From Alphaproteobacteria bacterium (GTDB lineage Bacteria > Pseudomonadota > Alphaproteobacteria > UBA828), in NCBI GenBank assembly GCA_965221125.1, contig CBDCRW010000005.1, forward strand, positions 384,001-448,000: DNA of 64,000 nt, given 5' to 3'. Shown piece after piece: positions 8,466 through 57,127 of this stretch. The notes below the pieces were generated by a model. It was not told where the DNA came from, did not search any database, and saw nothing but the letters and a program-made list of their open reading frames with translations. The position numbers and the translations under genes are program-made. Every line of letters begins with the position of its first letter. Within the stretch, counting starts at the first letter, position 1.

Positions 8466-9230
8466 TTGATCTATGTCAACCGCGTCGCGGTGGTGACCGG
8501 CGGCGCCAGCGGCATCGGGCGCGAGGTTGCACGCGCATTGGCCGCGCGCGGAGCGGCGGTCGCCGTCGCCGATATCAACGTCGACGGCGCCCGAGACGTC
8601 GCTGCGGCGCTGGTGCAGGACGGCGCGAAGGCGGAGGCCATCGCCGTCGACGTGAGCCGGGCCGAGCAGGCCGACGCGATGATCGCGCGCGCGATCGAGG
8701 CATTCGACAAGGTCGATATCCTGGTGCACAGCGCGGGCGTCGGCGTGGAGCGCAGCTTCCTCGAGACGACGCCGGAGGAATGGCGGCGCATCCTCGATAT
8801 CGACCTCTCCGGCACGTTCTTTTGCGGCCAGGCGGCGGCGCGCCACATGGTCGAGCGCGGTTACGGCCGCATCGTCAATCTCGCGTCCACCGCCGGCGTG
8901 CGCGGCGGCACCGGGCGCGCCGCCTACGGCACCGCCAAGGGCGGCGTCATCGCGCTCACCAAGGTGATGGCGGTCGAGCTCGCGCCCTTCGGCGTGACCG
9001 TGAACGCGCTTGCGCCCGGCGCGATCGAGACCGAGCTGGTGGCGAAGATGCACTCGGCGGAGACGCGGACGGTCTACCGCGCCGGCATCCCGCTCGACCG
9101 CTACGGCACGCCGGAGGAGACCGCGGCCGCGGCGCTCTTCCTCGCGAGCGAGGAGGCCCGCTACGTCACCGGCCACGTGCTCGCCGTCGACGGCGGCTTC
9201 CTCGCGGCCGGGGTGATGCACCGGCGTTAG
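8466..9230 (+). CDS. Short-chain dehydrogenase/reductase (start uncertain; TTG 8466 assumed)
   Basis: VTGGASGIG, YGTAKGG (YxxxK), VNALAPG, VDGG. Confidence 0.88.
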   Translation: MIYVNRVAVVTGGASGIGREVARALAARGAAVAVADINVDGARDVAAALVQDGAKAEAIAVDVSRAEQADAMIARAIEAFDKVDILVHSAGVGVERSFLETTPEEWRRILDIDLSGTFFCGQAAARHMVERGYGRIVNLASTAGVRGGTGRAAYGTAKGGVIALTKVMAVELAPFGVTVNALAPGAIETELVAKMHSAETRTVYRAGIPLDRYGTPEETAAAALFLASEEARYVTGHVLAVDGGFLAAGVMHRR

Positions 9231-9268
9231 AGCGTTTCCGCTTTGCACGGAAACGCTCCGGTCTCTAG
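9228..9268. repeat. Repeat family A, terminal hairpin only
   Basis: TAGAGCGTTTCCG-CTTTGCA-CGGAAACGCTC...CTAG; fills the gap between two convergent stop codons. Confidence 0.8.
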
Positions 9269-10026
9269 TACTGAACGCGCTGGGTGATTCCGCCGTCCAC
9301 CACCAGGTTCGCGCCCGTGGTGAAGCCCGAGAGCGGGCTCGCGAGGAAGGCCACGGCATCCGCCACCTCCTCGGCCGTTCCCATCCGCCCGGTGGGGTTG
9401 CGCGCAAGCGCCGCCTCGTAGGTCTCGGGGTCGTTCAGACGCCGCTGATCCCACACGCCGCCGTCGAAGAAGATCGTGCCCGGCGAGACGCAGTTCGCAC
9501 GAATGCCCTGGCCGGCCAGAGCATTGGCGAGGTTCGACGTGTAGTTGATGAGAGCGGCCTTGACCGAGTTGTAGGGGCGCACGCCGCCGAAGCTCTCCAC
9601 GCCGGCGACGCTGGAGACGGTGACGATCGCCGCGGCCTCGGAGTCTTCGAGGTGCGGCAGGGCCGCCTCCACCGTGCGCACGGTGCCGAGCACGTCGATC
9701 TCGAAGCCGGCCCGCCACGCAGCCTCGTCCGACGCACCGGCGAGCGCGCTCGGGTTGGCGACCACGATGTCGATGCCGCCGAGCGCGGCCGCCATCGCTT
9801 CGGTCCATTGCCCGACCGCCCCGCCGTCGGCCACGTCGCAGGCGGCGCCGATGACGGCGAGGTCCTCGGCCGCGAACGCCGCCAGCGCCGCATCGAGACC
9901 CGCGCTGCCGCGGGCGCAGATGCCGACCCGGCAGCCCTCCAGCGCGAGCCTGCGCGCGATGGCGCGGCCGATTCCCCGCGTGCCGCCCGTTACGATGGCC
10001 TTCTTGCCGTCAAGTTTGAGGTCCAT
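9265..10026 (-). CDS. Short-chain dehydrogenase/reductase
   Basis: VTGGTRGIG, YNSVKAA, VSPG, VVDGG. Confidence 0.9.
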   Translation of the reverse strand: MDLKLDGKKAIVTGGTRGIGRAIARRLALEGCRVGICARGSAGLDAALAAFAAEDLAVIGAACDVADGGAVGQWTEAMAAALGGIDIVVANPSALAGASDEAAWRAGFEIDVLGTVRTVEAALPHLEDSEAAAIVTVSSVAGVESFGGVRPYNSVKAALINYTSNLANALAGQGIRANCVSPGTIFFDGGVWDQRRLNDPETYEAALARNPTGRMGTAEEVADAVAFLASPLSGFTTGANLVVDGGITQRVQY

Positions 10027-10115
10027 GTCCTCGACCCTGTGTGACCATGGGTTCCGTGTAGCCTTGGGGAGTGTCGTGGGGTCTCACGCGCTTGTCCAGT
10101 TGGCGGAGAACCACC

Positions 10116-11252
10116 TTACGACTGGCCGGGAATCAGCTCGCGATAGACGTCGAGGGTCGCGCTGCACATCCCCTCCAGCGTGAAGTTGGCGCGCACGTGA
10201 GCCTGGCCCGCGGCTGCCATGCTCTCGCGCTCCGCCTGGCTCGCGCCCAACGCCCGGCTGATCGCCTGCGCCAGCGCGGCCGTATCGCCCGGCGGCACCA
10301 GCCACCCGGTCTCGCCGTGGATGACGGTCTCGCACGCGCCGCCGTGGGCCGTGGCGATCGCGCGCCGCCCCATGGCCTGCGCCTCGGCGGGGACGCGCCC
10401 AAAACCCTCGGGGCGGAGCGAGGGCGAGACCACGACATCGGCCAGCATGTAAGCCGCCGCCATGTCCCGGCAGGCGCCGACGAGCTGCACACGGTGCCTG
10501 GGCCCGAGCGCCGCGATCCGTTGCTCGATGCGGGCGCGATAGCCCGCGTGCGCCGCGTCGGCGGTGCCGACGAAGAGGCAGCAGACGCCCTCCCCGACCG
10601 CCGCCAGCGCGTCGAGCAGCGCGAGATGCCCCTTCAACGTGGTCACGCGCCCCGGCAGCATGACGACGGGCTGCCGCTCCGGCACGCGCCACGCATCGCG
10701 GAGCGCGGCGATCCTCTCGGGGCCGACATGCGCGGGGTCGAACACCGAGAGGTCCACGCCGCGCGGGATGATCCTGATCCTGTCCGGCGGCACGGCGTAG
10801 GTCTCGGCGATGTGACGGGCGATGAATTGCGAGATCGCGATGACCCGTGCGCCCCGCGTCATGATCGCGTTGTAGCGCCGCTTGCCCGGCCAGCCGGCGG
10901 AATAGGCGCCGTGAAAGGTCGTGACGAAGGGCCGCCCCGCACGTCTGGCCGCGTAATGGGCGAGCCAGGCGGGCCAGCGCGAGCGGGCGTGGACGAGGTC
11001 CGCGCCCTCCTCGGCAATCAGGCGTGCAAGGCGCAGAATCGCACCCGGTGCCTGCGCGGGGTTGCGGCGGGCGACGGGCAGCGCCGCATGCTGCGCGCCG
11101 GCAGCGGCGGCCTGTTCCCGGTCCGCCTGCTCTCCGGTCACGATGAGGGAGCGCCAGCCGGCTTCAACCAGCGCGCGCGAGATGTCGAGCGTGCCCCGCT
11201 CCACGCCCCCGCCCCCGGCGAGGCTCGGCAGGACTTGAAGGACCGTTGGCAT
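10116..11252 (-). CDS. Glycosyltransferase family 4
   Basis: GGGVERGT, VHARSR.PAW, PGRVTTLKGH, PEGFGRVPAEAQAMG (EX7E motif). Confidence 0.9.
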   Translation of the reverse strand: MPTVLQVLPSLAGGGGVERGTLDISRALVEAGWRSLIVTGEQADREQAAAAGAQHAALPVARRNPAQAPGAILRLARLIAEEGADLVHARSRWPAWLAHYAARRAGRPFVTTFHGAYSAGWPGKRRYNAIMTRGARVIAISQFIARHIAETYAVPPDRIRIIPRGVDLSVFDPAHVGPERIAALRDAWRVPERQPVVMLPGRVTTLKGHLALLDALAAVGEGVCCLFVGTADAAHAGYRARIEQRIAALGPRHRVQLVGACRDMAAAYMLADVVVSPSLRPEGFGRVPAEAQAMGRRAIATAHGGACETVIHGETGWLVPPGDTAALAQAISRALGASQAERESMAAAGQAHVRANFTLEGMCSATLDVYRELIPGQS

Positions 11253-11365
11253 GAAATCCGTCCCGGACCGGGTCGGGCCCGGCCAGCGAGTATCGCAAAC
11301 CGCCGCGCTTGCGTCGAGACGGGCTCAGCGTACGAGTGAGGTCATCTCCCTGTCGGGCGCGCGTC

Positions 11366-11545
11366 CTAGACCGTTTCCGTTGTAGACGGAAACGGTCTAG
11401 GAATTTGTCGCTCACGGCAGCCGGTCTTCGTGCGCTTGCGCGCGCCTACCGGCGCGACGACCGGCGCCTGCGCGTGCGCGCCGCATTCGCGGCGGGCCGC
11501 TGTCGCGGCCTGTCGCGCGTCCGTCAAAGTCGGACGCGCATCTAG
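11366..11545 (-). repeat. Repeat family A, long form (180 bp, reverse orientation)
   Basis: CTAG at both ends; terminal hairpin AGACCGTTTCCG/CGGAAACGGTCT; shares modules with the copies at 22475, 36546, 46977, 51271 and 56922. Confidence 0.88.
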
Positions 11546-11731
11546 CTAGCGACCCGCACAGAGGCCGGACGGCCGCGAGCGCACGACGTCGCCGCGCACT
11601 GCGGCGTCGATGCAGCCCCGATTGATGCCGATATCGGCGAGTTCGCGGTCGGTCAGGCTCTCAAGCTCGTGCCGCGCGCGGTGGCGCTCCTGCCAGTTCC
11701 GAACCGCCTGGGTGATGGTTGCGAAATCCAT
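11546..11731 (-). CDS. DUF1127 (YjiS-like) small protein, 61 aa
   Basis: MDFATITQAVRNWQERHRARHELESLTDRELADIGINR; RBS AGGAGG upstream. Confidence 0.85.
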   Translation of the reverse strand: MDFATITQAVRNWQERHRARHELESLTDRELADIGINRGCIDAAVRGDVVRSRPSGLCAGR

Positions 11732-12871: not shown

Positions 12872-12892
12872 CGCGGCCCCTTCGCCCGCGCT

Positions 12893-21765: not shown

Positions 21766-22477
21766 CGCGCGCGTACGCTCGCGCACCGGGCGGAGAGCGG
21801 ATGGCGTGAGCCGTAGTCCGAGACCGAAAGACGCGGCCACGCTGGTGCTGGTGCGGGGCGGCGCGAATGGGCCGGAGGTCCTGATGGGCCGCCGCCCCCG
21901 CCGCCAGGTCTTCATGCCGGATCAATACGTGTTCCCCGGCGGCGGCGTCGAGCCCTGCGATCGCTGGGTGCGCCCGGCGACGGAGCTTCGGCCCGGCGTG
22001 GCAGCCAGGCTTGCGCGCGCATGCACGCCGGGGCGCGCCCGCTCGCTGGCGGCCGCGGCGGTGCGCGAGACCTTCGAGGAGACGGGCCTTGCGCTCGGCC
22101 TGAAAGCGTCGGACGTGAACGGGCGGCTGCGGCCCGAATGGCAGGCCTTCCACGCGACCGGCCTCGCGCCCGCGCTCGACAGGCTCGACTACATCTACCG
22201 CGCGGTCACGCCGCCGGGGCTGCCGCGGCGCTTCAACGCGCGCTTCTTCCTCGCCCGCGCTGACGACGCGTCGGGAACGCTTGCCGGCAACGGCGAGCTG
22301 CTCGATCTCGGCTGGTTCCCTGTGGCGCAGGCGATGGACCTGCCGATCCCCTACATCACCGCCGTCGTGCTGGAAGAGCTCGAGCACATGTACGCCTCAC
22401 CCCCCGATCCCGACGCCGACCGCCCCGTGCCGGTCTGCATCCGCGTCGGCCGCGACCACATCCACAGCCAAGAGTAG
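21758..22477 (+). CDS. NUDIX hydrolase
   Basis: PKDAATLVL, VFPGGGVE...AAVRETFEETG, TPPG.PRRFNARFF. Confidence 0.88.
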   Translation: MTDARVRSRTGRRADGVSRSPRPKDAATLVLVRGGANGPEVLMGRRPRRQVFMPDQYVFPGGGVEPCDRWVRPATELRPGVAARLARACTPGRARSLAAAAVRETFEETGLALGLKASDVNGRLRPEWQAFHATGLAPALDRLDYIYRAVTPPGLPRRFNARFFLARADDASGTLAGNGELLDLGWFPVAQAMDLPIPYITAVVLEELEHMYASPPDPDADRPVPVCIRVGRDHIHSQE

Positions 22478-22606
22478 AGCGGGTCCGTCTCCGACGGAGC
22501 CGCGACAGGCCGCGACCGCGGCCCGCCGCGAATGCGGCGCCCTCGCGGAGGCGCTGGCCGTAGGCCAGCTGCCGTGAGCGACAAAGAGTCGAAGCGTTTC
22601 CTGCGG
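22475..22606 (+). repeat. Repeat family A (about 130 bp, right end decayed)
   Basis: Starts at the NUDIX stop TAG; contains GGCCCGCCGCGAATGCGGCGC, GCTGGCC-GTA-GGCCAGC and GCCGTGAGCGACAAAGA. Confidence 0.85.
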
Positions 22607-22634
22607 AAAAAAAGGAGACACCTCTGCAGGGCGC

Positions 22635-34051: not shown

Positions 34052-34054
<3 letters not shown>

Positions 34055-34080
34055 AGCGCATCCGACATGCACGGAAACGC
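34052..34080 (+). repeat. Repeat family A, internally deleted remnant
   Basis: Left end TAGAGCGCATCCGACAT fused to right-end GCACGGAAACGC; begins at the ATPase stop TAG. Confidence 0.6.
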
Positions 34081-34086
34081 CTCAAA

Positions 34087-34204
34087 GCGGCATATTCCGG
34101 CATACGCCGACACAAAGTGGCACAAGGTGGCACAAGGTGGCACGAAACGAGCGGCACGAGGTGGCACAAAGTGGCACAAGGTGGCACAAGGCGGAACAAG
34201 ATGG
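34087..34204. repeat. 10-bp-period tandem array (consensus CACAAGGTGG, about 11 units)
   Basis: CACAAAGTGG CACAAGGTGG CACAAGGTGG ... CACGAGGTGG CACAAAGTGG CACAAGGTGG CACAAGGCGG AACAAGATGG. Confidence 0.88.
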
Positions 34205-34420
34205 CCCGTCCCGGCGGCGGCCGGCGCCCGCTGGACGAGCGCCCGGCCGCGAGCCGGCTCCCCGGCGCCGCTCCGGCCCGGCTTTTCCTGAAGTTCGATG
34301 GTCTGCGCGCTGCATCCGCAGAGCCTGCCCCCACCAAGCGGCCCCGTGCACCGCACCATGGTCCGGTGAATCGCCCGCGGCTGAACTGTGGCGGGCGCAG
34401 GTTGATGCCATGAAAAACAC

Positions 34421-34467
34421 CCCCTCCTCACCCCGGCCCTCTCCTCCCCGGTGGGGAGGAGAGGGAG
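34421..34467 (+). repeat. REP-like palindrome
   Basis: Leader CCTCACCCCGG, then a 13-bp perfect stem CCCTCTCCTCCCC-GGT-GGGGAGGAGAGGG. Confidence 0.75.
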
Positions 34468-34506
34468 AACAGGTCGTGCCGCCTGCGTTCCCCCTCCGCC
34501 CTAGTG

Positions 34507-35673
34507 GATTCCTCTGCGAAATCGGCTTGGCGGGATGTTGGGGGAGAATTTTGGCGTTGAGCGGTGTTGATGGAGCCGATTTTGCCGCTACCGCCGGACG
34601 CTCTCGTGTCTGAAGCAGCGGTTTGCGGGTGCGATGCGGTGTCAGCAGCCCGCAATCAGGCTGGCGCGGCGCAGGTTGTAGGCGGTGGCAACGGCGTAGA
34701 GGCGGGCGGTGTTCCTCTCGAGCGTGAGGCTCTTCGCCCGCCTCAGCCCGTAGAGGCGCTTCAGCGCCGAGAAGACCGCTTCCACCGGTGCCCGGCGCCT
34801 GGCGATCAGATCGTTGCGGCGCTTCTGCCAGGGCGGCAACGAGGCCATGTGCTTGTTCCGCCGGTGCATGATGCGGTCCTTGATGCCGCAGGCCTTGAGC
34901 CTGGCCCGTCGCGCCGCCTGCTCGTAGGCGCGGTCGCCATAGACCGCCCCCTCGTCGCCGCAGATCAGCCGGTCGGCCACCTCGCTCTCGTAGGTCTTGG
35001 CCGAGCTCAGAACCAGGCGCCGGATCAGACCCGAGCCCTGGTCCACACCCACATGCGCCTTGTAGCCGAAGACGGCGCGGCCCTTCTTGCGCGTCCAGCC
35101 CGCGCCCCTCTCCCGTGGGTGCCCGGCACCGGCACCCGCCTTGTAGGGCGGAGGCCGCGAGGCCGAGGCCACCAACGTCGCGTCCATCAGCGTGCCCTTG
35201 CGCAGGATCAGGCCGGCGGCATCCAGCTGACGGTTGATCTCCTCGAACGCCGCCTCCAGGACCGCGCCTGCGTCCGCGCGGAAGCGGCAGATCGTGGTCT
35301 CGTCCGGCGTGCCCCCATCCAGCGCAAAGCCGCAGAAGCGCCGGAACGAGAGCCGGTCCAGCAGCGCCTCCTCCAGGCCGGGGTCCGAAAGGTCGTAGAG
35401 CGCCTGAAGATAGAGAGCCTTCAGCATCGCCAGCGGCGCATAGGGCGGACGACCCCGGCGTCCCTCGCGCACACGCGACGCCAGACGCTCCAGCCGAGAC
35501 CAGTCGATCAGGGCGTCCAGACGCTCCAGCTTCCGGTTTGTCCCCAGCCCCGCAGACATGAACGCTTCCGCAAACCCCAGCTGACCCGTGCCGCTCATCG
35601 AATCGACCTCCCCATCGCTGCAGCAACGAATCACATGCCACCCAATCCGCAAACCCACTTTCGCAGAGGAATC
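34507..35673 (-). mobile_element. IS5-family insertion sequence, copy 2 (1167 bp, inverted relative to copy 1)
   Basis: Same TIRs, same length and identical translated ORFs as copy 1; flanks CTAGTG and CAAAGG do not match each other. Confidence 0.95.
34642..35598 (-). CDS. IS5-family transposase (318 aa)
   Basis: Translation identical to 1716-2672. Confidence 0.95.
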   Translation of the reverse strand: MSGTGQLGFAEAFMSAGLGTNRKLERLDALIDWSRLERLASRVREGRRGRPPYAPLAMLKALYLQALYDLSDPGLEEALLDRLSFRRFCGFALDGGTPDETTICRFRADAGAVLEAAFEEINRQLDAAGLILRKGTLMDATLVASASRPPPYKAGAGAGHPRERGAGWTRKKGRAVFGYKAHVGVDQGSGLIRRLVLSSAKTYESEVADRLICGDEGAVYGDRAYEQAARRARLKACGIKDRIMHRRNKHMASLPPWQKRRNDLIARRRAPVEAVFSALKRLYGLRRAKSLTLERNTARLYAVATAYNLRRASLIAGC

Positions 35674-35800: not shown

Positions 35801-36565
35801 ATGCATCAGGACGTCGTCGACCTCAACGCCTTCTACCTGACCCGGCTCGGCCGCATCACGCGCCGCATCCTCGGCCAGCAGATCCGCCGGGTGTGGCCGA
35901 GCGTGCGCGAGGAGTCGGTGCTTGGGCTCGGCTACCCGGTGCCCTTCCTCGGCCTCTTCCGCGAGGAGGCGGAGCGCGTGTTCGCGATCATGCCGGCGGG
36001 CCAGGGGGTCATGGCCTGGCCCGAGAGCGGCGGGCGGCAGGTGGCGCTCGCCGACGACGGCTCGCTGCCGCTGCCGGACGGCTGCATCGACCGCATCCTC
36101 ATCGTCCACGGGCTCGAGTTCAGCGAGCAGCGGCGTGCGATGCTGGAGGAGGTGTGGCGCGTGATGCGGCCGAACGGGCGCATCCTGGTGCTGGTGCCGA
36201 ACCGCCACGGCCTCTGGGCGCGCGCGGAAGCCACGCCCTTCGGCCACGGCTCGCCCTTCAGCGCCTCCCAGCTCGGCCGGCTCCTGCGCGAGCACCGCTT
36301 CGCCCCGGTGGCCAGCGGCGCGATGCTGTTCCTGCCGCCCACGGGCTGGCGCGGGGTGCTGCGCACGGCCGCCATCTGGCAGCGCCTCGGCCGCCATCTC
36401 GGGCGCCCCTTCGGCGGCCTCGTCTACGTGGAGGCGGGCAAGACCGTGTTCGAGGCCCGTCCGGTGACGGCGCGGCAGAGGCGCCGCGTCATCATGCCGC
36501 TGCCGCAGCCGGTGCCGGCAGGCGCGCGAACGGCGGCAGGAGGCTTGGAGCGCGACCGTCTCTGA
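35801..36565 (+). CDS. Class I SAM-dependent methyltransferase (Methyltransf_11, YafS-like)
   Basis: FY...LG, LGLGYPVP, MPAGQG..WP, LP..D..IDRIL.VHGLE, PNR.GLWAR...TPFGHG.PFS. Confidence 0.85.
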   Translation: MHQDVVDLNAFYLTRLGRITRRILGQQIRRVWPSVREESVLGLGYPVPFLGLFREEAERVFAIMPAGQGVMAWPESGGRQVALADDGSLPLPDGCIDRILIVHGLEFSEQRRAMLEEVWRVMRPNGRILVLVPNRHGLWARAEATPFGHGSPFSASQLGRLLREHRFAPVASGAMLFLPPTGWRGVLRTAAIWQRLGRHLGRPFGGLVYVEAGKTVFEARPVTARQRRRVIMPLPQPVPAGARTAAGGLERDRL

Positions 36566-36672
36566 CGGACGCGCGACAGGCCGCGAAAGCGGCCCGCCGC
36601 GAATGCGGCGCCCTCGCGGAGGCGCCGGCCGCAGGCCGGCCGCCGTGAGCGACAAAAGGCCTTACCGTTTCT
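36546..36672 (+). repeat. Repeat family A, overlapping the 3' ends of two convergent genes
   Basis: GACGGACGCGCGACAGGCCGCGAAAGCGGCCCGCCGCGAATGCGGCGC, GCCGGCC-GCA-GGCCGGC, GCCGTGAGCGACAAA. Confidence 0.85.
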
Positions 36673-37294
36673 CCGACGAGAGCAGGAACACCGCCTGCTC
36701 GCCGAAGAGGTTGGCGAAGCGGCCGGTGCCGGAAAACCGGCGCACGCGGCCGCGTGAATCGACCTGGGTGCGCCGCTCGATACGGATGCCGAGCTCGCGG
36801 CAGAGCATCACGAAGTCCTTGATCGTGCACGGCCTGATCACCGGCGTCTCGTACCAGAGATCGCCGGAACCCAAGGCCGCCGGCATCCGGCCCCGCGTCA
36901 TCAGGTGCAGCCGGTTGCGCCAGTGCCCGAAGTTGGGGATGGACACGATGGCGCTCCGGCCGATCCTCAGCAGCTCCAGCAGCACGCCCTTGGGGTCGCG
37001 GATCGCCGGCAGGGTCTGGCTGAGCACGACGTAGTCGAAGGCCGCGTCCGGGTAATCGGCGAGGTCGGTCTCCGCATCCCCCTGGATGACCGAGAGCCCG
37101 CGCCTCACCGAGGCGTTCACGCCCTCGTGGCTGATCTCGATGCCGCGTCCGTCCACGTTCTTCTCGCGCGCCAGCAGCTCCAGCAGGGCGCCGTCGCCGC
37201 AGCCGATGTCGAGCAGGCGCGACCCCGGCTCCACCAGCTCGGCGATCAGGCGATGGTCGGGGCGGGCGCCGTGCCGCCCGCGCTCGATGCTCAC
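36662..37294 (-). CDS. metW: Methionine biosynthesis protein MetW
   Basis: LDIGCGDG, GLSVIQGD, FDYVVLSQTL, PNFGHW; downstream of metX. Confidence 0.93.
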   Translation of the reverse strand: MSIERGRHGARPDHRLIAELVEPGSRLLDIGCGDGALLELLAREKNVDGRGIEISHEGVNASVRRGLSVIQGDAETDLADYPDAAFDYVVLSQTLPAIRDPKGVLLELLRIGRSAIVSIPNFGHWRNRLHLMTRGRMPAALGSGDLWYETPVIRPCTIKDFVMLCRELGIRIERRTQVDSRGRVRRFSGTGRFANLFGEQAVFLLSSEKR

Positions 37295-40697: not shown

Positions 40698-41581
40698 GCC
40701 AACCCGAACGCTTCTCCCGCGTCGCACTGATCGGCCTCGGCCTGATCAACTCCTCGCTCGCGCGCGTGCTCCGCGAAAAGACGCCCGAGACGGAGATCGT
40801 GGGCTGCGCGCGGAGCCAGGCGACCCTCGACACGTCTGAGGCGCTCGGCTTCGTCGACCGGGCGACGCTCGACCCGGCGGAGGCCGTCGCGGGCTGCGAC
40901 CTCGTGGTGCTGGGCACGCCGGTCGGCACGTTCGCGCCCCTCGCAGCGCAGATCGGCCCGCACCTCGCCGCCGGCGCGATCCTGACCGACGTGGGCTCGG
41001 TCAAGGGCGCAGTGATTTCCGCGCTCTCCCCGCACGTGCCGGCGGGCGCCCACCTGGTCCCCGGCCACCCGGTGGCGGGTACCGAGCACTCCGGGCCGGA
41101 GGCCGGGTTCGCCGCGTTGTTCGAGGGCCGCTGGTGCATCCTGACCCCGCCGCCGGGCACGGACGCTCGGGCGGTGGAGCGCGTCGCGGCGCTCTGGCGC
41201 ATGGCCGGCATGACGGTGGAGCTGATGGACGTCGAGCACCACGACGCCGTGCTCGCCATCACCTCGCACCTGCCGCACCTGATCGCCTACAACATCGTCG
41301 GCACGGTCACCGACCTGGAGGAGGAGACCCGGCAGGAGGTGTTCAAGTACGCCGCCGCCGGCTTCCGCGACTTCACGCGCATCGCCTCGTCGGACCCGGT
41401 CATGTGGCGCGACATCTTCCTCAACAACCGGGGCGCGGTGCTGGAGATGCTGGGCCGCTTCACCGAAGACCTCTCGGCGCTGCAGCGCGCGGTCCGCCGG
41501 GGCGACGGCGACTACCTGGAAGCGCTCTTCACCCGCACCCGCGCCATCCGGCGCGGCGTGATCGAAGCCAAGCAGGTGTAG
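40694..41581 (+). CDS. tyrA: Prephenate/arogenate (cyclohexadienyl) dehydrogenase
   Basis: GTG overlapping the hisC stop; IGLGLI, TDVGSVK, GHPVAGTE, HD...AITSHLPH, GFRDFTRIA. Confidence 0.92.
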   Translation: MSQPERFSRVALIGLGLINSSLARVLREKTPETEIVGCARSQATLDTSEALGFVDRATLDPAEAVAGCDLVVLGTPVGTFAPLAAQIGPHLAAGAILTDVGSVKGAVISALSPHVPAGAHLVPGHPVAGTEHSGPEAGFAALFEGRWCILTPPPGTDARAVERVAALWRMAGMTVELMDVEHHDAVLAITSHLPHLIAYNIVGTVTDLEEETRQEVFKYAAAGFRDFTRIASSDPVMWRDIFLNNRGAVLEMLGRFTEDLSALQRAVRRGDGDYLEALFTRTRAIRRGVIEAKQV

Positions 41582-41612
41582 GGCGGCTTCGCCGGGGGTG
41601 GAAACGCTCTAG
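41579..41612. repeat. Repeat family A terminal hairpin, degenerate
   Basis: TAGGGCGGCTTCG...GGAAACGCTCTAG spans the tyrA and dapB stop codons. Confidence 0.6.
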
Positions 41613-46909: not shown

Positions 46910-46976
46910 GGCGGCCTCCAGGATCAGATGCTGAGCCTCAAGGTAGCGCGCCGGGCGCTGCGCCGGAACCCCGTGC

Positions 46977-47124
46977 AGGAGCGCGTCCGACATTGACGGA
47001 CGTGCGACAGGCCGCGACAGCGGCCCGCCGCGAATGGGGCGCCCTCGCGGAGGCGCTGGCCGAAGGCCAGCTGCCGTGAGCGACAGAGACTTAGAGCGTT
47101 TCCGTGCAAAACGGAAACGCTCTA
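46977..47124 (+). repeat. Repeat family A, complete short form
   Basis: GAGCGCGTCCGACATTGACGGACG ... GCTGGCC-GAA-GGCCAGC ... TAGAGCGTTTCCGTGCAAAACGGAAACGCTCTA. Confidence 0.9.
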
Positions 47125-47158
47125 AGCTCCACGCCATGCAAAGGGAGGACAGGCCACG

Positions 47159-47992
47159 ATGCGGACGCTAAGGCTGCCGGGCGGCGACGAGGTGGTGGCG
47201 CTCGGCCAGGGTACGTGGCGCATGGGCGAGCGCCGGGCCGCGCGCAAGGACGAGGTGGCGGCGCTCCGCCACGGCATCGCCAACGGCATGACGCTGATCG
47301 ACACCGCCGAGATGTACGGCTCCGGCGGGTCGGAGCGCGTGGTGGGCGAGGCGATCCGCGGGCAGCGAGATCAGGTCTACATCGTGAGCAAGGTCCTGCC
47401 GTCCAACGCCGGGCGGAAGCGCATGGTGCGGTCCTGCGAGAAGAGCCTGAAGTGCCTGGGTACCGATTACCTCGACCTCTACCTGCTGCACTGGCGTAGC
47501 GGTGTTGCCCTGGACGAGGTCGTCGAGGGTTTTCTGGCGTTGCAGGAGTCCGGCAAGATTCGCCGCTTCGGGGTCAGCAACTTCGACATCGACGACATGG
47601 AGGATCTTTGGGGGACCCCGGACGGCCAGGGCTGCCAGACCAACCAGATCCTCTACAACCTCTCGCGGCGCTGGCCCGAGGCGGAGCTTCTGGCCTGGTC
47701 CCGCAGCCACGACCAGCCGCTCATGATCTACTCGCCGCTGGAGCAGGGCAGGCTGCCGGAAGGCGGCGCGCTCGGCGCCATCGCGGGCGCGCGCGGCGTC
47801 ACGCCCATGCAGGTGGCGCTCGCCTGGGTGCTTCGCCACGAGGACGTGTTCGTCGTGCCCAAGGCGAGCCGCATCGCCCACGTCGATGCCAACCTCGGCG
47901 CGCTCGACATCGCGCTCACCGCCGACGAGCTTGCCGCCCTGGACGCGGCCTTCCCGCCGCCCGAAGGCGCAGCCCCCCTCGAAATTCTCTAG
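47159..47992 (+). CDS. Aldo/keto reductase (YeaE-like)
   Basis: LGQGTW, IDTAEMYG, SKV, DLYLLHW, GVSNF, YSPL, PKAS. Confidence 0.92.
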   Translation: MRTLRLPGGDEVVALGQGTWRMGERRAARKDEVAALRHGIANGMTLIDTAEMYGSGGSERVVGEAIRGQRDQVYIVSKVLPSNAGRKRMVRSCEKSLKCLGTDYLDLYLLHWRSGVALDEVVEGFLALQESGKIRRFGVSNFDIDDMEDLWGTPDGQGCQTNQILYNLSRRWPEAELLAWSRSHDQPLMIYSPLEQGRLPEGGALGAIAGARGVTPMQVALAWVLRHEDVFVVPKASRIAHVDANLGALDIALTADELAALDAAFPPPEGAAPLEIL

Positions 47993-48131
47993 CCCGCATT
48001 TCTCACCAGGGTCACGGCCTGCGTCGCGTCCAGGCGTTCGATCCGCCAGGAGCGGGCCGAAAAGCGTATCGGGGAATACGGTTGAGGCCCGCGACGCCGC
48101 GGGCGGGCGCCTGGGCGCGACCCGAAGGGCG
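47990..48131 (+). repeat. Repeat family B MITE, left half only
   Basis: TA-GCCCGCATTTCTCACCAGGGTCACGGCC...CCCGAAGGGCG, nearly identical to 58075-58243 apart from an internal indel; starts at the AKR stop TAG; right TIR absent. Confidence 0.85.
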
Positions 48132-48136
48132 GCCTC

Positions 48137-50262: not shown

Positions 50263-50336
50263 GGCGCAGTCCGGGCCGGATGCCGCCTTGGGTCCCGATT
50301 CCGGGCAACGGACGCTGCGGAGAAGGAGGCTTGACC

Positions 50337-51201: not shown

Positions 51202-51270
51202 ATCGCAGGCGGCCGCCGCCGCCTGCACTCGCACGCGCCGGATCGCCCGCCACCCGCGTCAGGGCATTTC

Positions 51271-51409
51271 TGGAGCGCGTCCGACCATGACGGACGCGCG
51301 ACAAGCGGCCCGCCGCGAATGCGGCGCGCCCGCGCAGGCATCGGCCGAAGGCCGACTGCCGTGAGCGATAAAGACTCAGAGCGTTTCCGTGCAAAACGGA
51401 AACGCTCTA
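51271..51409 (+). repeat. Repeat family A, complete short form
   Basis: GAGCGCGTCCGACCATGACGGACGCGC ... TCGGCC-GAA-GGCCGA ... AGAGCGTTTCCGTGCAAAACGGAAACGCTCTA. Confidence 0.9.
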
Positions 51410-51489
51410 ATGTCTCGTGCGAGGCTGGCCGGGTAGACTGCCGCCGACGCCCGGACGCGCCCGGCGCAGGGCACGACGCGAGAGCAGGC

Positions 51490-52143
51490 ATGAGCAGGAC
51501 GATGCGGGCGAAGGCCGGAGCCGACGCCCCGGAACCCCGAATTCGGGCCAGGAACAAGGCGCGGATTCTGAACGCCGCCGTCGATCTCTTCGCCGACAAG
51601 GGTTTTCATGGCACGCACGTGAAGGAGATCGCGCTGGCGAGCGGCCTGCCCAAGACCAACGTCTACTACTATTTCCCGACCAAGGAGAGCATCTACACGG
51701 CCCTGATCGAGCGGCTGATCGAGGGCTGGGACCTCGCCTTCGAGCACATCGTGGCCGAGCGCGCGCCGCGCGATGCCATCGCCGCCTACATCCGCGCGAA
51801 GCTCGAGTACTCGCGCCTGCACGCCGCCGAATCCCGCTTCTTCGCCAACGAGATCCTGCGCGGCGCGACGTTCCTGGAGCGCCGCCAGCGCCGGCACATC
51901 TGCGACGTCACCACCCAGCGCGCCCATGTGGTGGAGGAATGGATCCGCACGGGCCAGATGGCGCCGGTGGACCCGCGCCACTTCTTCATCATGCTGTGGT
52001 CGGCGACCCAGTTCTATGCGGATTTCGGCGTGCTCGCCGCGGACGTGCTGGAGAAGCGCCGGCTCACGCGGAAGGACTTCGACGACGCGGCCAAGACCAT
52101 GACCCGGGTCATCCTGGACGGCTGCTGCACGTCGCGCCGGTAG
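51490..52143 (+). CDS. TetR family regulator (RutR-like)
   Basis: HTH ILNAAVDLFADKGF..IA..SGLPKTNVYYYF.TKE; RutR-type C-terminus SRFFANEI and WSATQFYADF. Confidence 0.88.
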   Translation: MSRTMRAKAGADAPEPRIRARNKARILNAAVDLFADKGFHGTHVKEIALASGLPKTNVYYYFPTKESIYTALIERLIEGWDLAFEHIVAERAPRDAIAAYIRAKLEYSRLHAAESRFFANEILRGATFLERRQRRHICDVTTQRAHVVEEWIRTGQMAPVDPRHFFIMLWSATQFYADFGVLAADVLEKRRLTRKDFDDAAKTMTRVILDGCCTSRR

Positions 52144-52192
52144 GCGCGCGGAATCAAATGACGGCCGGCTGCCGCGAGCGATAAACGCTCTG
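52141..52192 (+). repeat. Repeat family A, internally deleted remnant
   Basis: TAGGCGCGCG..TGACGG-CCGGCTGCCGCGAGCGATAAA-CGCTCT; starts at the tetR stop. Confidence 0.55.
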
Positions 52193-52322
52193 AGACCGAC
52201 GCCGCGCCGCTTGCGATGCGGCAGCGATGATGTATAGTCCGCCGCCTGGGTCTGCCGCCTCGCGGCTGCGGGGCGGGTGGCCTATTACGCGCCGCGACGG
52301 ACATTCAGGAGAACAGCGCCGC

Positions 52323-53274: not shown

Positions 53275-53342
53275 CCGGGCAGCCGGTCTTCGCCCGGCGC
53301 CGGTTGAGCGGTGCGGGCGACACCCACGCGGAGAACAGGGGC

Positions 53343-53987: not shown

Positions 53988-54011
53988 ACCCGGAACTCGA
54001 GGCTTCCTGCC

Positions 54012-55226: not shown

Positions 55227-55252
55227 GCCGGCAAGCGCCGCAGCCGTGCCGG

Positions 55253-55383
55253 TCACTCACAGCTTGCTCACAGGCGACGTGGCGAAAACACGAGGGTTTG
55301 AACGGTTTTCCCCGTAATTCTGGCCCTGTGAACACGGAAAACGTGCAAAACCGGGTTTCCACGATATCCCCAATTTTCATACA
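55253..55383. promoter_or_regulatory. Cluster of degenerate DnaA-box-like 9-mers upstream of dnaB
   Basis: Seven 7/9 matches to TTWTNCACA within about 130 bp of relatively AT-rich DNA. Confidence 0.4.
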
Positions 55384-55430
55384 TCGAGGCCGCTAACACC
55401 CGGCGTGCGTTTCCGTGTATTACAGTGAGC

Positions 55431-56924
55431 ATGGCGACGCGCGTTCCCCTGCAGGAAGCAACGACCGAGACGCCGGGCTACCGCTCGCCCCCCAGCAACC
55501 TCGAGGCCGAACAGGCGCTCCTCGGCGCGCTGCTGGTCAACAACGAGGCCGCCAGCCTGGTCAGCGCCTTCCTGCTGCCGGAGCATTTCTTCCTGCCGGT
55601 GCATGGCCGCATCTACGACGCCGTCCTCCGCATGATCGAGCGAGGGCAGATCGCCAACCCCGTGACCCTGAAGCACTTTTTCGAGCGCGACGAAGCGCTG
55701 GAGGAGGCCGGCGGCGGGCAGTACCTGGCGCGGCTCGCTGGCTCCGCCGTCACCGTGATCAATGCCGAGCACTACGGCCGCGCCATCCACGACCTGGCGA
55801 TGCGGCGCGCGCTGGTCTCCATCGGCGAGGTGGTGGTGAACGAGGCCTACGACGGGCCGCTCGACCAGCCCGCGACGGAGCAGATCGAGGAGGCCGAGCA
55901 CCGGCTCTACCAGCTCGCCGAGGACGGCCGGGTCGACCCCGGCGGGCAGCAGTTCGCGGCGCCGCTGGCCAGCGCCGTCGAGATGATCGAGCAGGCTTAC
56001 AAGCGCGACACGCCGCTCACCGGCGTGCCGACGGGCTTCGTCGACCTCGACCGCCTGCTGGGCGGCTTGCACGCCTCCGACCTGGTCATCATGGCCGGCC
56101 GGCCCGGCATGGGAAAGACGGCGCTCGCCACCAACATCGCCTTCAACGCCGCGAAGATGTACAGCCCAGGCGACGGGCCGGACGGCAAGAACCCGCCCGA
56201 CGGCGCCAAGGTCGCCTTCTTCTCGCTGGAGATGTCGGCCGAGCAGCTCGCGACGCGTATTCTCGCCGAGCAGACCGAAATCTCGTCGGACAGGCTCAGG
56301 CGCGGCGACGTGCGCGACGTGGACTTCGACCGCATCGTTGCGGCCTGCCGCACGATGGAGAGCCTGCCGCTCTTCATCGACGATTCGCCCGCGCTCACCA
56401 TCGCGGGCCTGCGCGCCCGGGCGCGCCGGCTGAAGCGCCGCCACGGCATCTCGTTGATCGTGGTCGACTACCTGCAGCTCATGCGACCCACCACCAGCCT
56501 GCGGCTCAACAACCGCGTGCAAGAGGTCTCGGAGGTGACGCAGGGCCTCAAGGCGCTCGCCAAGGACCTCGACCTGCCGGTTCTGGCGCTGGCCCAGCTC
56601 AGCCGCGCCGTCGAGCAGCGCGACGACAAGCGGCCGCAGCTCGCGGACCTGCGGGAATCGGGCTCCATCGAGCAGGACGCGGACGTGGTCATGTTCATCT
56701 ACCGCGAGCAGTACTACCTCGCGCGCAAGGAGCCGGACGAGGGCACCGCCGACCACGCCGAGTGGCAGGAGAAGATGGACAAGGTCCACAACAAGGCCGA
56801 GATCATCACCGCCAAGCAGCGCCACGGCCCCATCGGCAAGGTCGAGCTCTACTTCAACGCGCTGCTCACCAAGTTCGACAACCTCGACAGGATCCATGAG
56901 CCGGCGGACGATCCGCCGTTCTAA
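55431..56924 (+). CDS. dnaB: Replicative DNA helicase
   Basis: EAEQALLGA, AGRPGMGKT, FSLEMS, VDYLQL, DLRESGSIEQDAD, KQRHGP. Confidence 0.96.
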   Translation: MATRVPLQEATTETPGYRSPPSNLEAEQALLGALLVNNEAASLVSAFLLPEHFFLPVHGRIYDAVLRMIERGQIANPVTLKHFFERDEALEEAGGGQYLARLAGSAVTVINAEHYGRAIHDLAMRRALVSIGEVVVNEAYDGPLDQPATEQIEEAEHRLYQLAEDGRVDPGGQQFAAPLASAVEMIEQAYKRDTPLTGVPTGFVDLDRLLGGLHASDLVIMAGRPGMGKTALATNIAFNAAKMYSPGDGPDGKNPPDGAKVAFFSLEMSAEQLATRILAEQTEISSDRLRRGDVRDVDFDRIVAACRTMESLPLFIDDSPALTIAGLRARARRLKRRHGISLIVVDYLQLMRPTTSLRLNNRVQEVSEVTQGLKALAKDLDLPVLALAQLSRAVEQRDDKRPQLADLRESGSIEQDADVVMFIYREQYYLARKEPDEGTADHAEWQEKMDKVHNKAEIITAKQRHGPIGKVELYFNALLTKFDNLDRIHEPADDPPF

Positions 56925-57127
56925 AGCGCGTCCGACTTTGACGGACGCGCTTGGCCGCGACAGCGGCCCGCCGCGAATGCGGCGCACATCGCGCGCCCCT
57001 GCGCGCGTGGCCGCGCGACGCGGAGGCGCTGGCCGTCGCGCCGATAGGCGCGCGCAAGCGCACGACGGCCAGCTGCCGTGAGCGATAAAGACTCAGAGCG
57101 TTTCCGTGCAAAACGGACACGCTCTAG
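56922..57127 (+). repeat. Repeat family A, longest form (about 205 bp)
   Basis: Begins at the dnaB stop TAA and ends GCTCTAG; contains all modules plus the branched insert shared with the 11366 copy. Confidence 0.9.

Follow-up and report, generated by a model that had tools for sequence, protein, structure and literature searches.

BIME, RIME and BOX elements are mosaics of palindromic modules that lie between genes in a fixed order, some modules being optional, and BIMEs are bound by gyrase, IHF and Pol I. MITEs derived from IS630/Tc1 elements, such as the Correia elements, are short, non-autonomous and intergenic, carry terminal inverted repeats (TIRs) and TA borders, and may touch gene ends. 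IS200/IS605 elements have subterminal hairpins at both ends and a tetranucleotide 5′ of the left end, without a long target duplication, and the fold of a REPIN is a single long hairpin. PMC6006769 deals with elements of the IS200/IS605 type and with derivatives of these that carry palindromes, and in Bertels and Rainey (2011, PMC3116915) and PMC3337134 a REPIN is presented as a pair of inverted REPs moved by RAYTs. According to the text of Di Nocera, De Gregorio and Rocco (2013, PMC3733652), tagged REPs have stems of 6-13 bp and form tag-outward dimers around a conserved spacer of 20-100 bp that holds stem-loops. The same text describes GTAG REPs as lying mostly after coding regions, with termini that supply TAG stops to the flanking genes, sub-families told apart by complementary changes in their stems, and singletons that are remnants of dimers.

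Family A is an undescribed intergenic repeat family of 140-210 bases with a fixed series of hairpins. In the window, the whole 64-kb stretch of DNA that was analysed, it was counted as six full copies (c1 to c6) and four partial units (Table 1). The initial annotation had listed six near-complete copies and four remnants; all six copies were present where it placed them and could be aligned along their full length, and all four remnants proved real. Full copies measure 141-208 nt (n=6) and share 81-91% pairwise identity when aligned end to end. A covariance model, the check proposed in that annotation, was trained on the six window copies together with two outside copies (L074 and L095). Scanning the 64 kb with filters off recovered exactly six matches, at 127.7-169.4 bits, with a gap of about 100 bits to the runner-up (26.8 bits). 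The model fits its own training copies by construction; independent support comes from blastn of the two outside loci against the window, in which the longest match per copy reached E = 2e-44 to 4e-14 for all six and the flanks gave no match.

Table 1. Units of family A in the window, with the modules of reference copy c4.
Feature	Position	Strand	Description
c1	11366-11545	-	180 nt; long form, complete; 157.8 bits
c2	22474-22626	+	153 nt; short form; 152.1 bits
c3	36545-36685	+	141 nt; short form; 143.1 bits
c4	46976-47126	+	151 nt; reference copy, short form, complete; 169.4 bits
c4 left hairpin (LH)	46981-47005		
c4 hairpin 2	47010-47025		
c4 hairpin 3	47026-47041		
c4 variable stem	47052-47075		with GAA triloop
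c4 unpaired GTGAGCGA	47076-47083		
c4 terminal hairpin (RH)	47090-47126		
c5	51270-51411	+	142 nt; short form; 144 bits
c6	56921-57128	+	208 nt; longest form; 127.7 bits
Solo terminal hairpin	9227-9260	-	97% complementary to the c4 and c5 RH
Hybrid solo hairpin	34052-34082	+	read directly against c4 LH and RH
Degenerate terminal hairpin	41579-41612	.	fills the gap between convergent genes
5′-truncated long-form copy	52130-52195	+	84% to c1, 79% to L074

Both ends of the element are related palindromic units, LH and RH, with a common foot, (C/T/G)TAG-AGCG...TCCG. Their stems are 9 and 12-16 bp long, they are arranged tag-outward, and they differ from each other at two stem positions, both compensated. 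Most tags read CTAG or YTRG, with GTAG at only one of eight LH units; the RH tag takes part in pairing and flanks the hairpin on either side. In c1, CTAG stands at the left end and to either side of the terminal hairpin. TAGAGCG occurs 19 times in the window against 5.4±2.3 expected, eight of the 19 lying at unit ends; CTAG is rare, yet five of its 24 occurrences fall exactly at unit ends. The spacer between the end units is conserved; it is made up of short G+C-rich hairpins, three to seven in number, and the unpaired CCGTGAGCGA. This motif is invariant in 8/8 copies though mostly unpaired, which would suit a candidate recognition or cleavage site; the top-base frequency was 0.95 in paired columns versus 0.84 in unpaired ones.

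The module order had been described as fixed, and this holds overall, with three exceptions: c5 has lost the left arm of hairpin 2 to a 9-nt deletion (its terminal hairpin is intact), the terminal hairpin is decayed in c2 and decayed or absent in c3, and c6 carries a further two-hairpin insert 3′ of hairpin 3, also found, translated, in P0005. One loop varies in its middle base only, as annotated, reading GTA in c2, GCA in c3 and GAA in c4 and c5; the triloop of the outside locus L095 is also GAA (n=5 GNA loops). The long copies c1 and c6 indeed have a two-hairpin branch within the variable stem in place of this triloop, and the same stem extension was seen in L074 and in the 52130 remnant.

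All ten units lie between genes, within the approximately 11% of the window that is non-coding, and the genes flanking the copies are unrelated housekeeping genes. Five of the ten units supply a stop codon to a neighbouring gene. The TAG foot of c2 ends the NUDIX gene upstream (flanking genes convergent) and the TAA foot of c6, which lies between dnaB and mlaE, ends dnaB. The TAG of the 9227-9260 unit ends an SDR gene upstream, with convergent neighbours; this unit is inverted, its loop being the reverse complement of the RH loop. The 34052-34082 hairpin provides the TAG of an ABC ATPase gene, and its LH-like left arm (GAGCGCATCCG) and RH-like right arm (CGGAAACGC) fit a deletion product of a full element that has lost its entire interior. 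The 41579-41612 unit fills the whole gap between two convergent genes, its left TAG being the prephenate dehydrogenase stop and its right CTA the dapB stop. At c3, the upstream methyltransferase gene stops at a TGA within the left-hairpin loop and the convergent metW ends at the place expected for the terminal hairpin. In the 52130-52195 remnant the variable stem is reduced to its right half, which survives along with the inner two-hairpin branch, GCGAGCGATAAA and the final bases of RH, and the stop codon of TetR falls within an inner loop. Of the remaining copies, c1 lies between divergent glycosyltransferase and alpha/beta hydrolase genes, c4 in a divergent promoter region 32 nt ahead of the aldo/keto reductase start, and c5 between co-directional Usp and TetR genes. 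Overall the full copies occupy two divergent, two convergent and two tandem contexts, a mixture that speaks against one single cis-regulatory role.

In the minimum-free-energy structure, local hairpins stand in a row. Folding energies gave z scores of -8.1 (c4, RNA parameters), -8.2 (c4, DNA), -7.7 (c6, DNA) and -7.2 (c1, RNA), and in each case the observed energy was reached by 0/200 shuffles. RNA and DNA parameters gave the same z and the reverse strand of c4 folded equally well (z -8.06), so nothing in the fold is specific to ssDNA; the evidence, GNA triloops included, is equally compatible with RNA. The proposal that the fold is maintained was borne out in an alignment of the eight DNA rows, in which 93.9% of stem cells were paired and two-sided changes occurred at 11 of 50 pairs, compared with 3.5±1.5 in shuffles (reached by 0/500) and 0-3 in slid controls; some counts for helices 7-8 are soft, as these take in the c2, c3 and L074 rows with a decayed or misaligned terminal hairpin. 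The compensations quoted previously were all recovered, namely GAGCG/CGCTC versus GACCG/CGGTC in c1, and GCTGGCC, GCCGGCC and TCGGCC, each with its complement. At LH pair 10/28, read in 23 copies (eight DNA copies and 15 translated ones read at their second codon bases), C-G was found in 8, A-T in 9, T-A in 3 and G-C in 1, with 2 unpaired. Non-canonical pairs comprised three G·T, one A·C and five others, without strand bias. Hairpin-templated repair, too, can produce compensated changes in a DNA palindrome without selection.

Family members were also found in two other alphaproteobacterial MAGs, at non-homologous sites with unrelated flanks: L074 (110.7 bits) and L095 (129.9 bits), which adjoins tRNA-Leu. 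Translated copies were present in 22 representative metagenomic ORFs among 1.84 billion. Window copies are 80-86% identical to copies in other genomes, and so about as diverged from each other as from these, giving no sign of recent copying. No full-length match to family A was found in Rfam, in plasmid and phage collections or among sequence strings in papers. The description as an undescribed non-autonomous element family is fair for the family, but REP dimers with structured spacers (BIME or MITE-like) are already a well-known kind; what is new is the family itself, within the known REP/BIME/MITE class.

Family A is probably a REP/MITE-type repeat of some sort, selfish or domesticated. Its anatomy is that of a head-to-head REP heterodimer, or a REPIN/BIME-like composite, with a structured spacer. 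We tentatively read it, with slightly less than even confidence, as a non-coding composite palindromic repeat of the REP/BIME/REPIN kind, HUH-type mechanism included. The end units fit published tagged REPs in outward tags, structured spacer and stop codons, and their stems are near the size range given for these. The whole 140-210-nt unit would then be a non-autonomous element that depends on an enzyme encoded elsewhere in the genome to copy it into further intergenic positions. This enzyme would read the terminal hairpins and the adjacent tag on single-stranded DNA, in the manner of HUH/Y1 transposases of the RAYT or IS200/IS605 type, and sites beside TAG/TAA stop codons would be favoured. 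Copies would persist for long and then decay through loss of RH, nested inserts and internal deletion, the last leaving solo hairpins. An HUH-type mobiliser is itself a possibility that falls a little short of an even chance. Counting against it are the mostly CTAG/YTRG tag, paired and two-sided in RH, and the lack of any Y1/HUH transposase among the 56 window proteins scanned. A mobilising enzyme encoded elsewhere had been suggested, and no transposase with matching ends lies within the window, where the sole transposase is of the IS5 family and has ends unrelated to family A. To our knowledge, no RAYT, parent IS or TnpA has been reported for this family. The window also holds a second repeat, clearly of TIR type, at 58074-58376.

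Judged by the ends alone, a MITE moved by a DDE transposase (IS630/Tc1-mariner or another TA/CTAG-targeting type) encoded elsewhere would fit equally well, with LH and RH as terminal inverted repeats, TA as the duplicated target and the hairpins incidental; on all the evidence we consider it rather unlikely. The left end reads CTAGAGCG(CG)TCCG and the right end, once reverse-complemented, CTAGAGCG(TT)TCCG, with agreement at 12/14 positions, and TA borders 5/8 left ends and 4/4 intact right ends, but the other three left ends have TG, TG and AG. TA and CTAG are rare in the 70% G+C DNA of the window (CTAG 24 versus 80 expected), which would explain insertion at stop codons. The TIR-type repeat mentioned above likewise begins at CTAA/CTAG, suggesting that TA-targeting elements may be active in the genome, but none of the 56 window proteins is IS630-like. 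Moreover, the interior is structured and conserved far beyond the needs of a MITE, the invariant unpaired motif included, the end stems are kept by compensation that a dsDNA-binding transposase does not require, and the age and divergence of the copies do not resemble a typical MITE burst.

It is improbable that family A is mainly a structured RNA, either a cis-acting 3′UTR stabiliser/terminator or a small RNA gene family, with repetition secondary. The strong fold (z about -8) and compensated stems are consistent with such a role, as are three G·U-type pairs on the forward strand versus one A·C, but the reverse strand folds as well and no Rfam family matched. Four of the six full copies lie directly downstream of a co-oriented gene, but two are in divergent promoter regions into which no upstream gene reads, and the neighbouring genes have no common function. 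On the reverse strand RH is followed by GTCTTTATCG, resembling an intrinsic terminator, and in Agrobacterium vitis a T-run comes after an RH-like hairpin situated between convergent genes; a gene reads into the terminator-like side in only 2/6 copies, however, and no sigma-70-like promoter was detected within c4, c5 or c6. RNA roles have been proposed for REPs (in the text of PMC3733652), but copies of family A decay freely (c2, c3, c5 and the remnants).

There is likewise little probability that these are dsDNA sites for protein binding or nucleoid structuring, as in BIMEs with gyrase, IHF and Pol I, their palindromy stemming from dimeric binding or hairpin-templated repair without a single-strand function and their spread from recombination rather than transposition. 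The modules are palindromic, and invariance of CCGTGAGCGA and of the hairpin-2 and hairpin-3 stems indicates constraint at the level of sequence, not merely of structure; but the occurrence of all four Watson-Crick pairs at one stem position keeps pairing rather than sequence, the opposite of what dsDNA sites predict. Chance likeness of G+C-rich intergenic hairpins, with no true family, was rejected as having next to no probability, since, although the 17-mer core is unspecific (it retrieved 114 loci from other genomes, 112 of them by chance), identity extends over the whole 140-210 nt, the bit-score gap is wide and outside copies match at E down to 2e-44.

Among known systems, single hairpins on Rhizobiaceae replicons resemble the terminal hairpin alone (67/69 matching records were Rhizobiales). 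That of S. meliloti pSymB has CTAG-AGCGTTTC arms with CTAG on both sides, and relative to RH its loop is shorter and one pair is changed with compensation; that of A. vitis has a 12-bp stem identical to that of RH and a terminator-like T-run after it. These hairpins occur at 1-2 places per record, without the LH, spacer or GTGAGCGA motif of family A. With TA-targeting MITEs family A shares its short length, non-autonomy, TIRs, TA borders, intergenic sites and contact with gene ends, but TA is missing at some ends and the interior is structured and compensated. Like IS200/IS605 elements it combines subterminal hairpins on both sides with a conserved tetranucleotide immediately preceding the left end, and long target duplications are absent, a layout that by analogy would follow the logic of a single-strand substrate. 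A fixed-order mosaic, optional modules and intergenic sites are shared with BIME, RIME and BOX, likened here by description only, whereas the modules are its own and its known hosts are uncultured alphaproteobacteria. REPINs, as described in the cited papers, have in common with it a REP-like doublet with a spacer, non-autonomy, longevity and singletons as decay products. Each end unit of family A is a full palindrome in a predicted row of local hairpins, in contrast to the single long hairpin of REPINs. GTAG REPs were compared through the text descriptions of PMC3733652, and the sole Rhodospirillales genome named in its text and supplements, Azospirillum lipoferum 4B, carries a different type (CGTC-1). 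Classical REPs have an unpaired, one-sided GTAG where family A has CTAG/YTRG, and its spacer of approximately 85-140 nt with 3-7 hairpins is at or above their 20-100 bp. As described there, GTAG REP dimers nevertheless share with family A TAG-bearing foot tags that face outward on unlike-stemmed partners (a heterodimer), a structured and conserved spacer, intergenic sites that mostly follow coding regions, TAG stops, complementary stem changes and singletons as remnants.

The six full copies of family A, a composite palindromic intergenic repeat, were found at the coordinates of the initial annotation (c1-c6; see table); they aligned from end to end and were 81-91% identical to one another over the shared core. 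The covariance model that had been proposed was built from these six copies and two copies from other genomes, and a scan of the entire window with filters off returned c1-c6 at 127.7-169.4 bits and everything else at 26.8 bits or less. Recovery of the training copies is built into such a model. Independent evidence came from blastn with the loci of other genomes: L074, from a Rhodospirillales MAG (JAPPHR01; 110.7 bits), and L095, from an alphaproteobacterial MAG (OZ253557.1; 129.9 bits), matched all six copies (E 2e-44 to 4e-14, longest match per copy) and nothing else in the window, where their flanks also matched nothing. Five of the six full copies lie on the + strand, an orientation bias that is not significant.

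Positions of family A units, of other features in the window and of related hairpins on plasmids
Feature	Position	Orientation	Length	Remarks
c1	11366-11545	reverse	180 nt	
c2	22474-22626	forward	153 nt	
c3	36545-36685	forward	141 nt	
c4	46976-47126	forward	151 nt	reference copy
c5	51270-51411	forward	142 nt	
c6	56921-57128	forward	208 nt	
solo unit	9227-9260	inverted		RH
hybrid hairpin	34052-34082			left arm LH-type, right arm RH-type
decayed unit	41579-41612			decayed RH
truncated copy	52130-52195			long form, 5′ side truncated
TetR-family gene	about 51491-52143			
dnaB-mlaE interval	56924-57252			
MITE-form repeat	58074-58376		~300 nt	between mlaE and ABC ATPase gene
MITE-form left half	47989-48101			96% identical
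IS5-family copies	1641-2809; 34505-35673	inverted to each other	~1.17 kb	identical, ~32 kb apart
10-bp tandem array	34111-34205			~9 copies, 77% matches
C/T-rich hairpin	34438-34466			perfect
G+C-rich hairpin	53275-53301			between rpsR and rplI
S. meliloti pSymB hairpin (L118)	301-331			RH-like
A. vitis plasmid hairpin (L117)	401-432			12-bp stem identical to RH

Read from left to right in c4, the element comprises a foot, (C/T/G)T(A/G)G; the left hairpin (LH), formed by GCGCGTCCG, a 7-nt loop and CGGACGCGC; hairpin 2 (GGCCGC, a GNNN loop and GCGGCC); hairpin 3 (CGCCGC-GAAT-GCGGCG); a short G+C stem; a variable stem with a G-N-A triloop at its tip; CCGTGAGCGA(C/T)AAA, which is unpaired; and the terminal hairpin (RH), formed by (C/T)TAGAGCGTTTCCG, a loop and CGGAAACGCTCTA(G/A). 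The initial annotation had described the module order as fixed, and the order is indeed the same in all copies, with these exceptions: c5 lacks the left arm of hairpin 2, RH is decayed or absent in c2 and c3, and c1 and c6 (as well as L074 and the truncated copy) carry a stem extension with two small hairpins in place of the triloop. In c6 there is an additional two-hairpin insert 3′ of hairpin 3, which was also seen translated in P0005, an ORF of another genome. The stem variants and the loops GTA, GCA, GAA and GAA reported earlier were all present in the alignment, and the triloop of L095 is another GAA. The motif CCGTGAGCGA was identical in 8/8 DNA copies although it is mostly unpaired.

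The two end hairpins are related, as two versions of one unit. The stem of LH is 9 bp long and its loop 7 nt, for 25 nt in total; in RH, a stem of 12-16 bp carries a loop of 5-7 nt, for about 33 nt. Across the nine loop-proximal stem pairs they differ at two positions (GCG-CG-TCCG vs GCG-TT-TCCG), both of them compensated in the 3′ arm (CGGA-CG-CGC vs CGGA-AA-CGC), and a TAG-AGCG foot is common to both. Because RH is a perfect palindrome through its foot, CTAG or TTAG stands on both sides of it, so that the tag there is base-paired and two-sided. The foot of LH is on the outer side only, and the four bases before LH in eight copies were CTAG (three), GTAG, CTGG, TTGG, CAGG and CTAA (one each). 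Judging by its two arms, we read the hybrid hairpin as what is probably a full element that has lost its entire interior.

Single copies were strongly folded compared with dinucleotide shuffles, with z-scores of -8.09 for c4 forward under RNA parameters, -8.17 for the same strand under DNA parameters, -8.06 for c4 reverse under RNA parameters, -7.67 for c6 forward under DNA parameters and -7.20 for the forward strand of the c1 element under RNA parameters. In every case, on either strand, the minimum-free-energy and centroid folds were a row of local hairpins.

Covariation was assessed on an alignment of eight rows with a structure of 50 pairs. Standard pairs filled 93.9% of cells, compared with 89.4±0.6 in shuffles (0/500 as high), and 11 pairs had changed on both sides, compared with 3.5±1.5 in shuffles (0/500); when partners were slid by 1-3 columns as a control, 0-3 pairs had changed on both sides. 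Some of these counts come from the RH helices, where the rows of c2, c3 and L074 show decay or misalignment. Firm compensation is seen at LH column 10/28 (six copies with C-G, c2 with G-C, L095 with A-T), in three variable-stem pairs with C-G/T-A swaps, and in the RH of c1, where G-C is swapped to C-G. Nine departures were uncompensated (three G·T, one A·C and five other mismatches). Conservation was 0.95 in paired columns and 0.84 in unpaired ones.

Translated copies from public protein sets were then added; in the frame S-A-S-x-x-D-G-R-A, residues 2 and 8 carry the two sides of LH pair 10/28 as the middle base of their codons. The stretch was present in 16 peptides, of which P0017 was dropped, as its LH is in another frame, and c5 and c6 were taken from the DNA. 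In the resulting 23 copies (eight of them DNA), the pair was C-G in 8, A-T in 9, T-A in 3, G-C in 1 and unpaired in 2, so that all four Watson-Crick pairs were seen and pairing was retained in 21/23. The peptides also retained most of CCGTGAGCGA, as AAVSD or AAVSE.

The initial annotation had suggested that the fold is under selection and may act as single-stranded DNA. The first part agrees with a fold maintained by pairing, while the second gains no preference over RNA: z-scores were the same for both strands and both parameter sets, and the wobble pairs (three G·T vs one A·C, counts too few to decide) gave no strand bias. The fold evidence thus does not tell ssDNA, RNA and cruciform apart. 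In DNA palindromes, hairpin-templated repair is another source of compensated changes, one that operates without selection. C-GNA-G triloops are exceptionally stable in DNA, and the G-N-A observation made here on five loops is a lead and no evidence of function.

The window is chromosomal DNA of ~70% G+C whose gene content is ordinary housekeeping: urease, TRAP and ABC transporters, metW/metX, pheA, hisC, dapB, xseA, rpsF-rpsR-rplI, dnaB, radA and purF. In the plasmid collection it matched Azospirillum chromids best, at ~76% nucleotide identity, and the host is therefore a Rhodospirillales-like alphaproteobacterium. Coding sequence makes up 89% of the 64 kb (rough GC3-based gene map), and all ten family A units are nevertheless intergenic. 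The stop codon of a neighbouring gene is supplied by five of the ten, as TAG by the units at 9228, 22475, 34052 and 41579 and as TAA by the unit at 56922, and at the 41579 unit the CTA on the other side doubles as the dapB stop. Similarly, c3 provides the last codons of an upstream methyltransferase together with a TGA within the LH loop, and the convergent metW terminates within the place where the RH of c3 is expected. All three forward frames are closed within the element. Two full copies lie between divergent genes, two between convergent genes and two between tandem genes, and the genes adjoining the copies have nothing in common. Since neighbours take their stop codons and last few codons from the element, family A explains odd gene ends; it also accounts for annotated small ORFs or N-terminal extensions that are spurious. 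The TetR-family gene is bracketed by family A, with c5 79 nt upstream of its start and the truncated copy overlapping its stop codon.

CTAG is three-fold under-represented in the window (24 sites vs 80±9 expected), and despite this avoidance the exact unit ends of family A hold 5 of the 24. The heptamer TAGAGCG occurred 19 times, compared with 5.4±2.3 expected, and 8 of the 19 were at family A unit ends.

Outside the window, the 17-base core of hairpin 3 was used as the query against the genome collection and gave at least 114 loci. Among the 114 matches listed, blastn and the covariance model identified two as family A members, L074 and L095, and the other 112 had only the seed in common. An Acidimicrobiia MAG locus (L016, 35.8 bits) was considered as a distant member and rejected, its alignment being seed-driven and otherwise degenerate. 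L074 is a long form with an RH remnant, and its TAG foot is a stop codon; L095 is a short form without RH and abuts a tRNA-Leu gene. Both were 80-86% identical to the window copies, the same range as within the window, and this equality within and between genomes indicates that family A is old, with no sign of a recent burst.

When the translated element was searched as a profile, 5.8 billion clustered proteins yielded 9 small ORFs, none of them informatively named and each from an ENA or JGI assembly; a set of 1.84 billion yielded 22 representatives at E ≤ 0.001 (12 with E ≤ 1e-10). The hairpin 3 loop, invariant in the DNA set, varies in these peptides (PPRM, PPLM, PPLL, PPPM), and the hairpin 3 stem codons are unchanged. 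In one metagenomic ORF (P0015) the part from hairpin 3 to GTGAGCGA is duplicated in tandem, and repeats of the last motif come after it; tandem arrays of partial units therefore exist elsewhere.

The full element had no match in the plasmid collection (queried with c4) or the phage collection (queried with c6), and at a laxer threshold the terminal hairpin was the sole part of c6 that matched plasmids. RH alone matched 69 plasmid records, 67 of them from Rhizobiales. The S. meliloti pSymB hairpin has CTAG on both sides, one compensated pair different and a loop one base shorter than that of RH, and the A. vitis hairpin, which lies between convergent genes, has a T-run after it, a terminator-like arrangement. 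A control search of plasmids with LH gave six chance-like hits, all in coding regions and from six unrelated genera. The Rhizobiales matches, set beside this control, argue that the RH-type unit is more widespread in alphaproteobacteria than the composite.

Several further repeats were observed in the window. A second, unrelated repeat has the classic form of a MITE, with ~25-nt terminal inverted repeats, TAACCCGCAATTCTCACCAGGGTCA and its near-complement; a copy of its left half follows directly after the stop codon of an aldo/keto reductase gene, and both copies start at CTAA or CTAG. The IS5-family element encodes DDE_Tnp_1 and DUF772 domains, has the TIR GGATTCCTCTGCGAAA and sits within a short palindrome at both of its sites; recombination between the two copies could invert the segment with c1 and c2. 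Between the hybrid hairpin and an IS copy lies the tandem array, with the unit CACAAGGTGG, and just before the IS insertion site is the C/T-rich hairpin, CCTCTCCTCCCC-GGT-GGGGAGGAGAGG, which may be a unit of another palindromic family. The small G+C-rich hairpin matched the variable-stem part of the model at 17.9 bits and is probably an unrelated attenuator or terminator-like structure.

How family A may spread was considered in the light of these features. Our leading prediction, made tentatively and with a little less than even confidence, is copying by an HUH/Y1 enzyme encoded elsewhere, whose substrate would be single-stranded DNA, at the end hairpins and the tag beside them. This is favoured by the hairpins at both ends, the conserved tetranucleotide just outside the left hairpin, the invariant unpaired motif in every copy, the retention of pairing rather than of sequence, and the old, persistent copy population. 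No Y1 transposase domain was detected among the 56 window proteins scanned. The autonomous element with matching ends that the initial annotation had thought worth seeking was absent from the window, where the sole transposase is of the IS5 family; as a partner this was rejected, its TIR being unrelated to the ends of family A.

The main rival, which we regard as unlikely, is that a TA-targeting DDE transposase moves family A. As in DDE-type MITEs (IS630/Tc1-like), complete copies have terminal inverted repeats, the left end matching the reverse complement of the right end at 12/14 positions. TA, which an enzyme of this kind would duplicate at both ends, is present at 5/8 left ends and 4/4 intact right ends. 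The window contains neither an IS630 gene nor an HUH gene. Empty sites were sought by synteny in Azospirillum chromids, which at ~76% were too distant and gave no clean empty site. In plasmid pAB510e of Azospirillum sp. B510 (L115), alr lies between dnaB and a mlaE-like permease gene, whereas in the window c6 stands alone in the dnaB-mlaE interval with no alr; because B510 has alr there, the locus gives no clean empty site for c6.

A bolder reading, for which we see only a slim chance, holds that family A is not decaying junk: selection would have maintained this multi-hairpin element over a long time in an uncultured Rhodospirillales-like clade, where a yet-undescribed ssDNA enzyme would act on it. 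The substrate would be the CTAG-footed end hairpins together with the invariant unpaired CCGTGAGCGA, and the enzyme might be, for example, an HUH protein that resembles RAYTs or IS200/IS605 but recognises a new tag. The structured spacer, with its G-N-A and G-N-N-A loops, might function in folded form as ssDNA, or else be an RNA with a guide-like or scaffold role for the enzyme. This reading is kept in play by the equal divergence within and between genomes (80-91%), by the four Watson-Crick pairs at one stem position and by the RH-type hairpin also found in Rhizobiaceae.

A primary RNA function and a dsDNA-binding role are improbable, each of them ranking below both the HUH/Y1 and the DDE readings. 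A promoter role was set aside, as no sigma-70-like site lies inside c4, c5 or c6. A terminator role was rejected: at c5 the reverse-strand RH with its T-rich tail is terminator-like, but a gene reads into that side in only 2/6 copies. A link to CcrM methylation, as in Caulobacter repeats, was likewise dismissed, since 3/6 copies have a GANTC site next to RH where the 102 sites of the window would put about 1.6 in the elements by chance, a difference that is not significant. GANTC itself is three-fold under-represented in the window (102 vs 286±17 expected).

To place family A among known repeats, Rfam 15 was searched, as suggested initially; at gathering thresholds there were 0 matches across the entire window, and in E-value mode c4 and c6 were matched at 7-18 bits at best, against thresholds of 34-270. 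Searches of paper text for element strings found unrelated primers only, and topic searches found no description, within a scope that stops short of the older RIME/CIR/Bru-RS papers and subscription journals. Family A appears new as a family, while an earlier description is possible. If this is right, a well-defined repeat family is added for a poorly sampled group of alphaproteobacteria, one whose modules are clear, for which a covariance model exists and whose pair of terminal hairpins can be tested.

In family A, two related hairpins (LH and RH, with 2/9 loop-proximal pairs different and both compensated) flank a spacer; each is a full palindrome, so that only the tag and the loop show how the two are oriented to each other. 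A REPIN doublet folds into one long hairpin; family A differs in its predicted rows of local hairpins.

The REP survey (PMC3733652) describes CGTC-type REPs as having a terminal CGTC, 8-9-bp stems starting with two A-T pairs, 4-5-nt loops and a CCA tail. Family A departs from that description: its LH and RH stems start with G-C, its loops are of 7 nt, there is no CCA tail, and CGTC is confined to the LH stem. According to the survey, CGTC REPs predominate in alpha-proteobacteria and no dedicated transposase was found for them, and the sole Rhodospirillales genome named in it, that of Azospirillum lipoferum 4B, has a different REP type (PMC3733652).

GTAG-type REPs, as the survey describes them, are palindromic units of 20-40 bp with stems of 6-13 bp and an unpaired GTAG at one end, degenerate solely at positions 2-3; they are extragenic and high in copy number, their termini often provide a TAG stop, and a RAYT gene flanked by like units is called a REPtron (PMC3733652). 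Family A resembles this type in its small palindromic units, the RH stem being slightly above the range. The window has 10 units in 64 kb, all of them intergenic and 5/10 with a stop. The TAG core is common to both and the unpaired, one-sided state is not: the first tag base of family A is usually C, and the RH tag is paired and two-sided. The tag is mostly CTAG rather than GTAG, and the spacer is unusually long and structured. Tagged palindromes outside the gamma-proteobacteria may use RAYTs, DDE enzymes or none, a question on which the partner enzyme of family A would bear. Tagged REPs are further described, in the same survey, as sited 3′ of coding regions, commonly as tag-outward head-to-head dimers that are often heterodimers, with conserved spacers of 20-100 bp in which stem-loops are possible, complementary stem changes that define sub-families, and singletons that are dimer remnants (PMC3733652). 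As its anatomy matches tagged REPs so described, we would read family A as a REP heterodimer or a REPIN/BIME-like composite with an unusually long, structured spacer.
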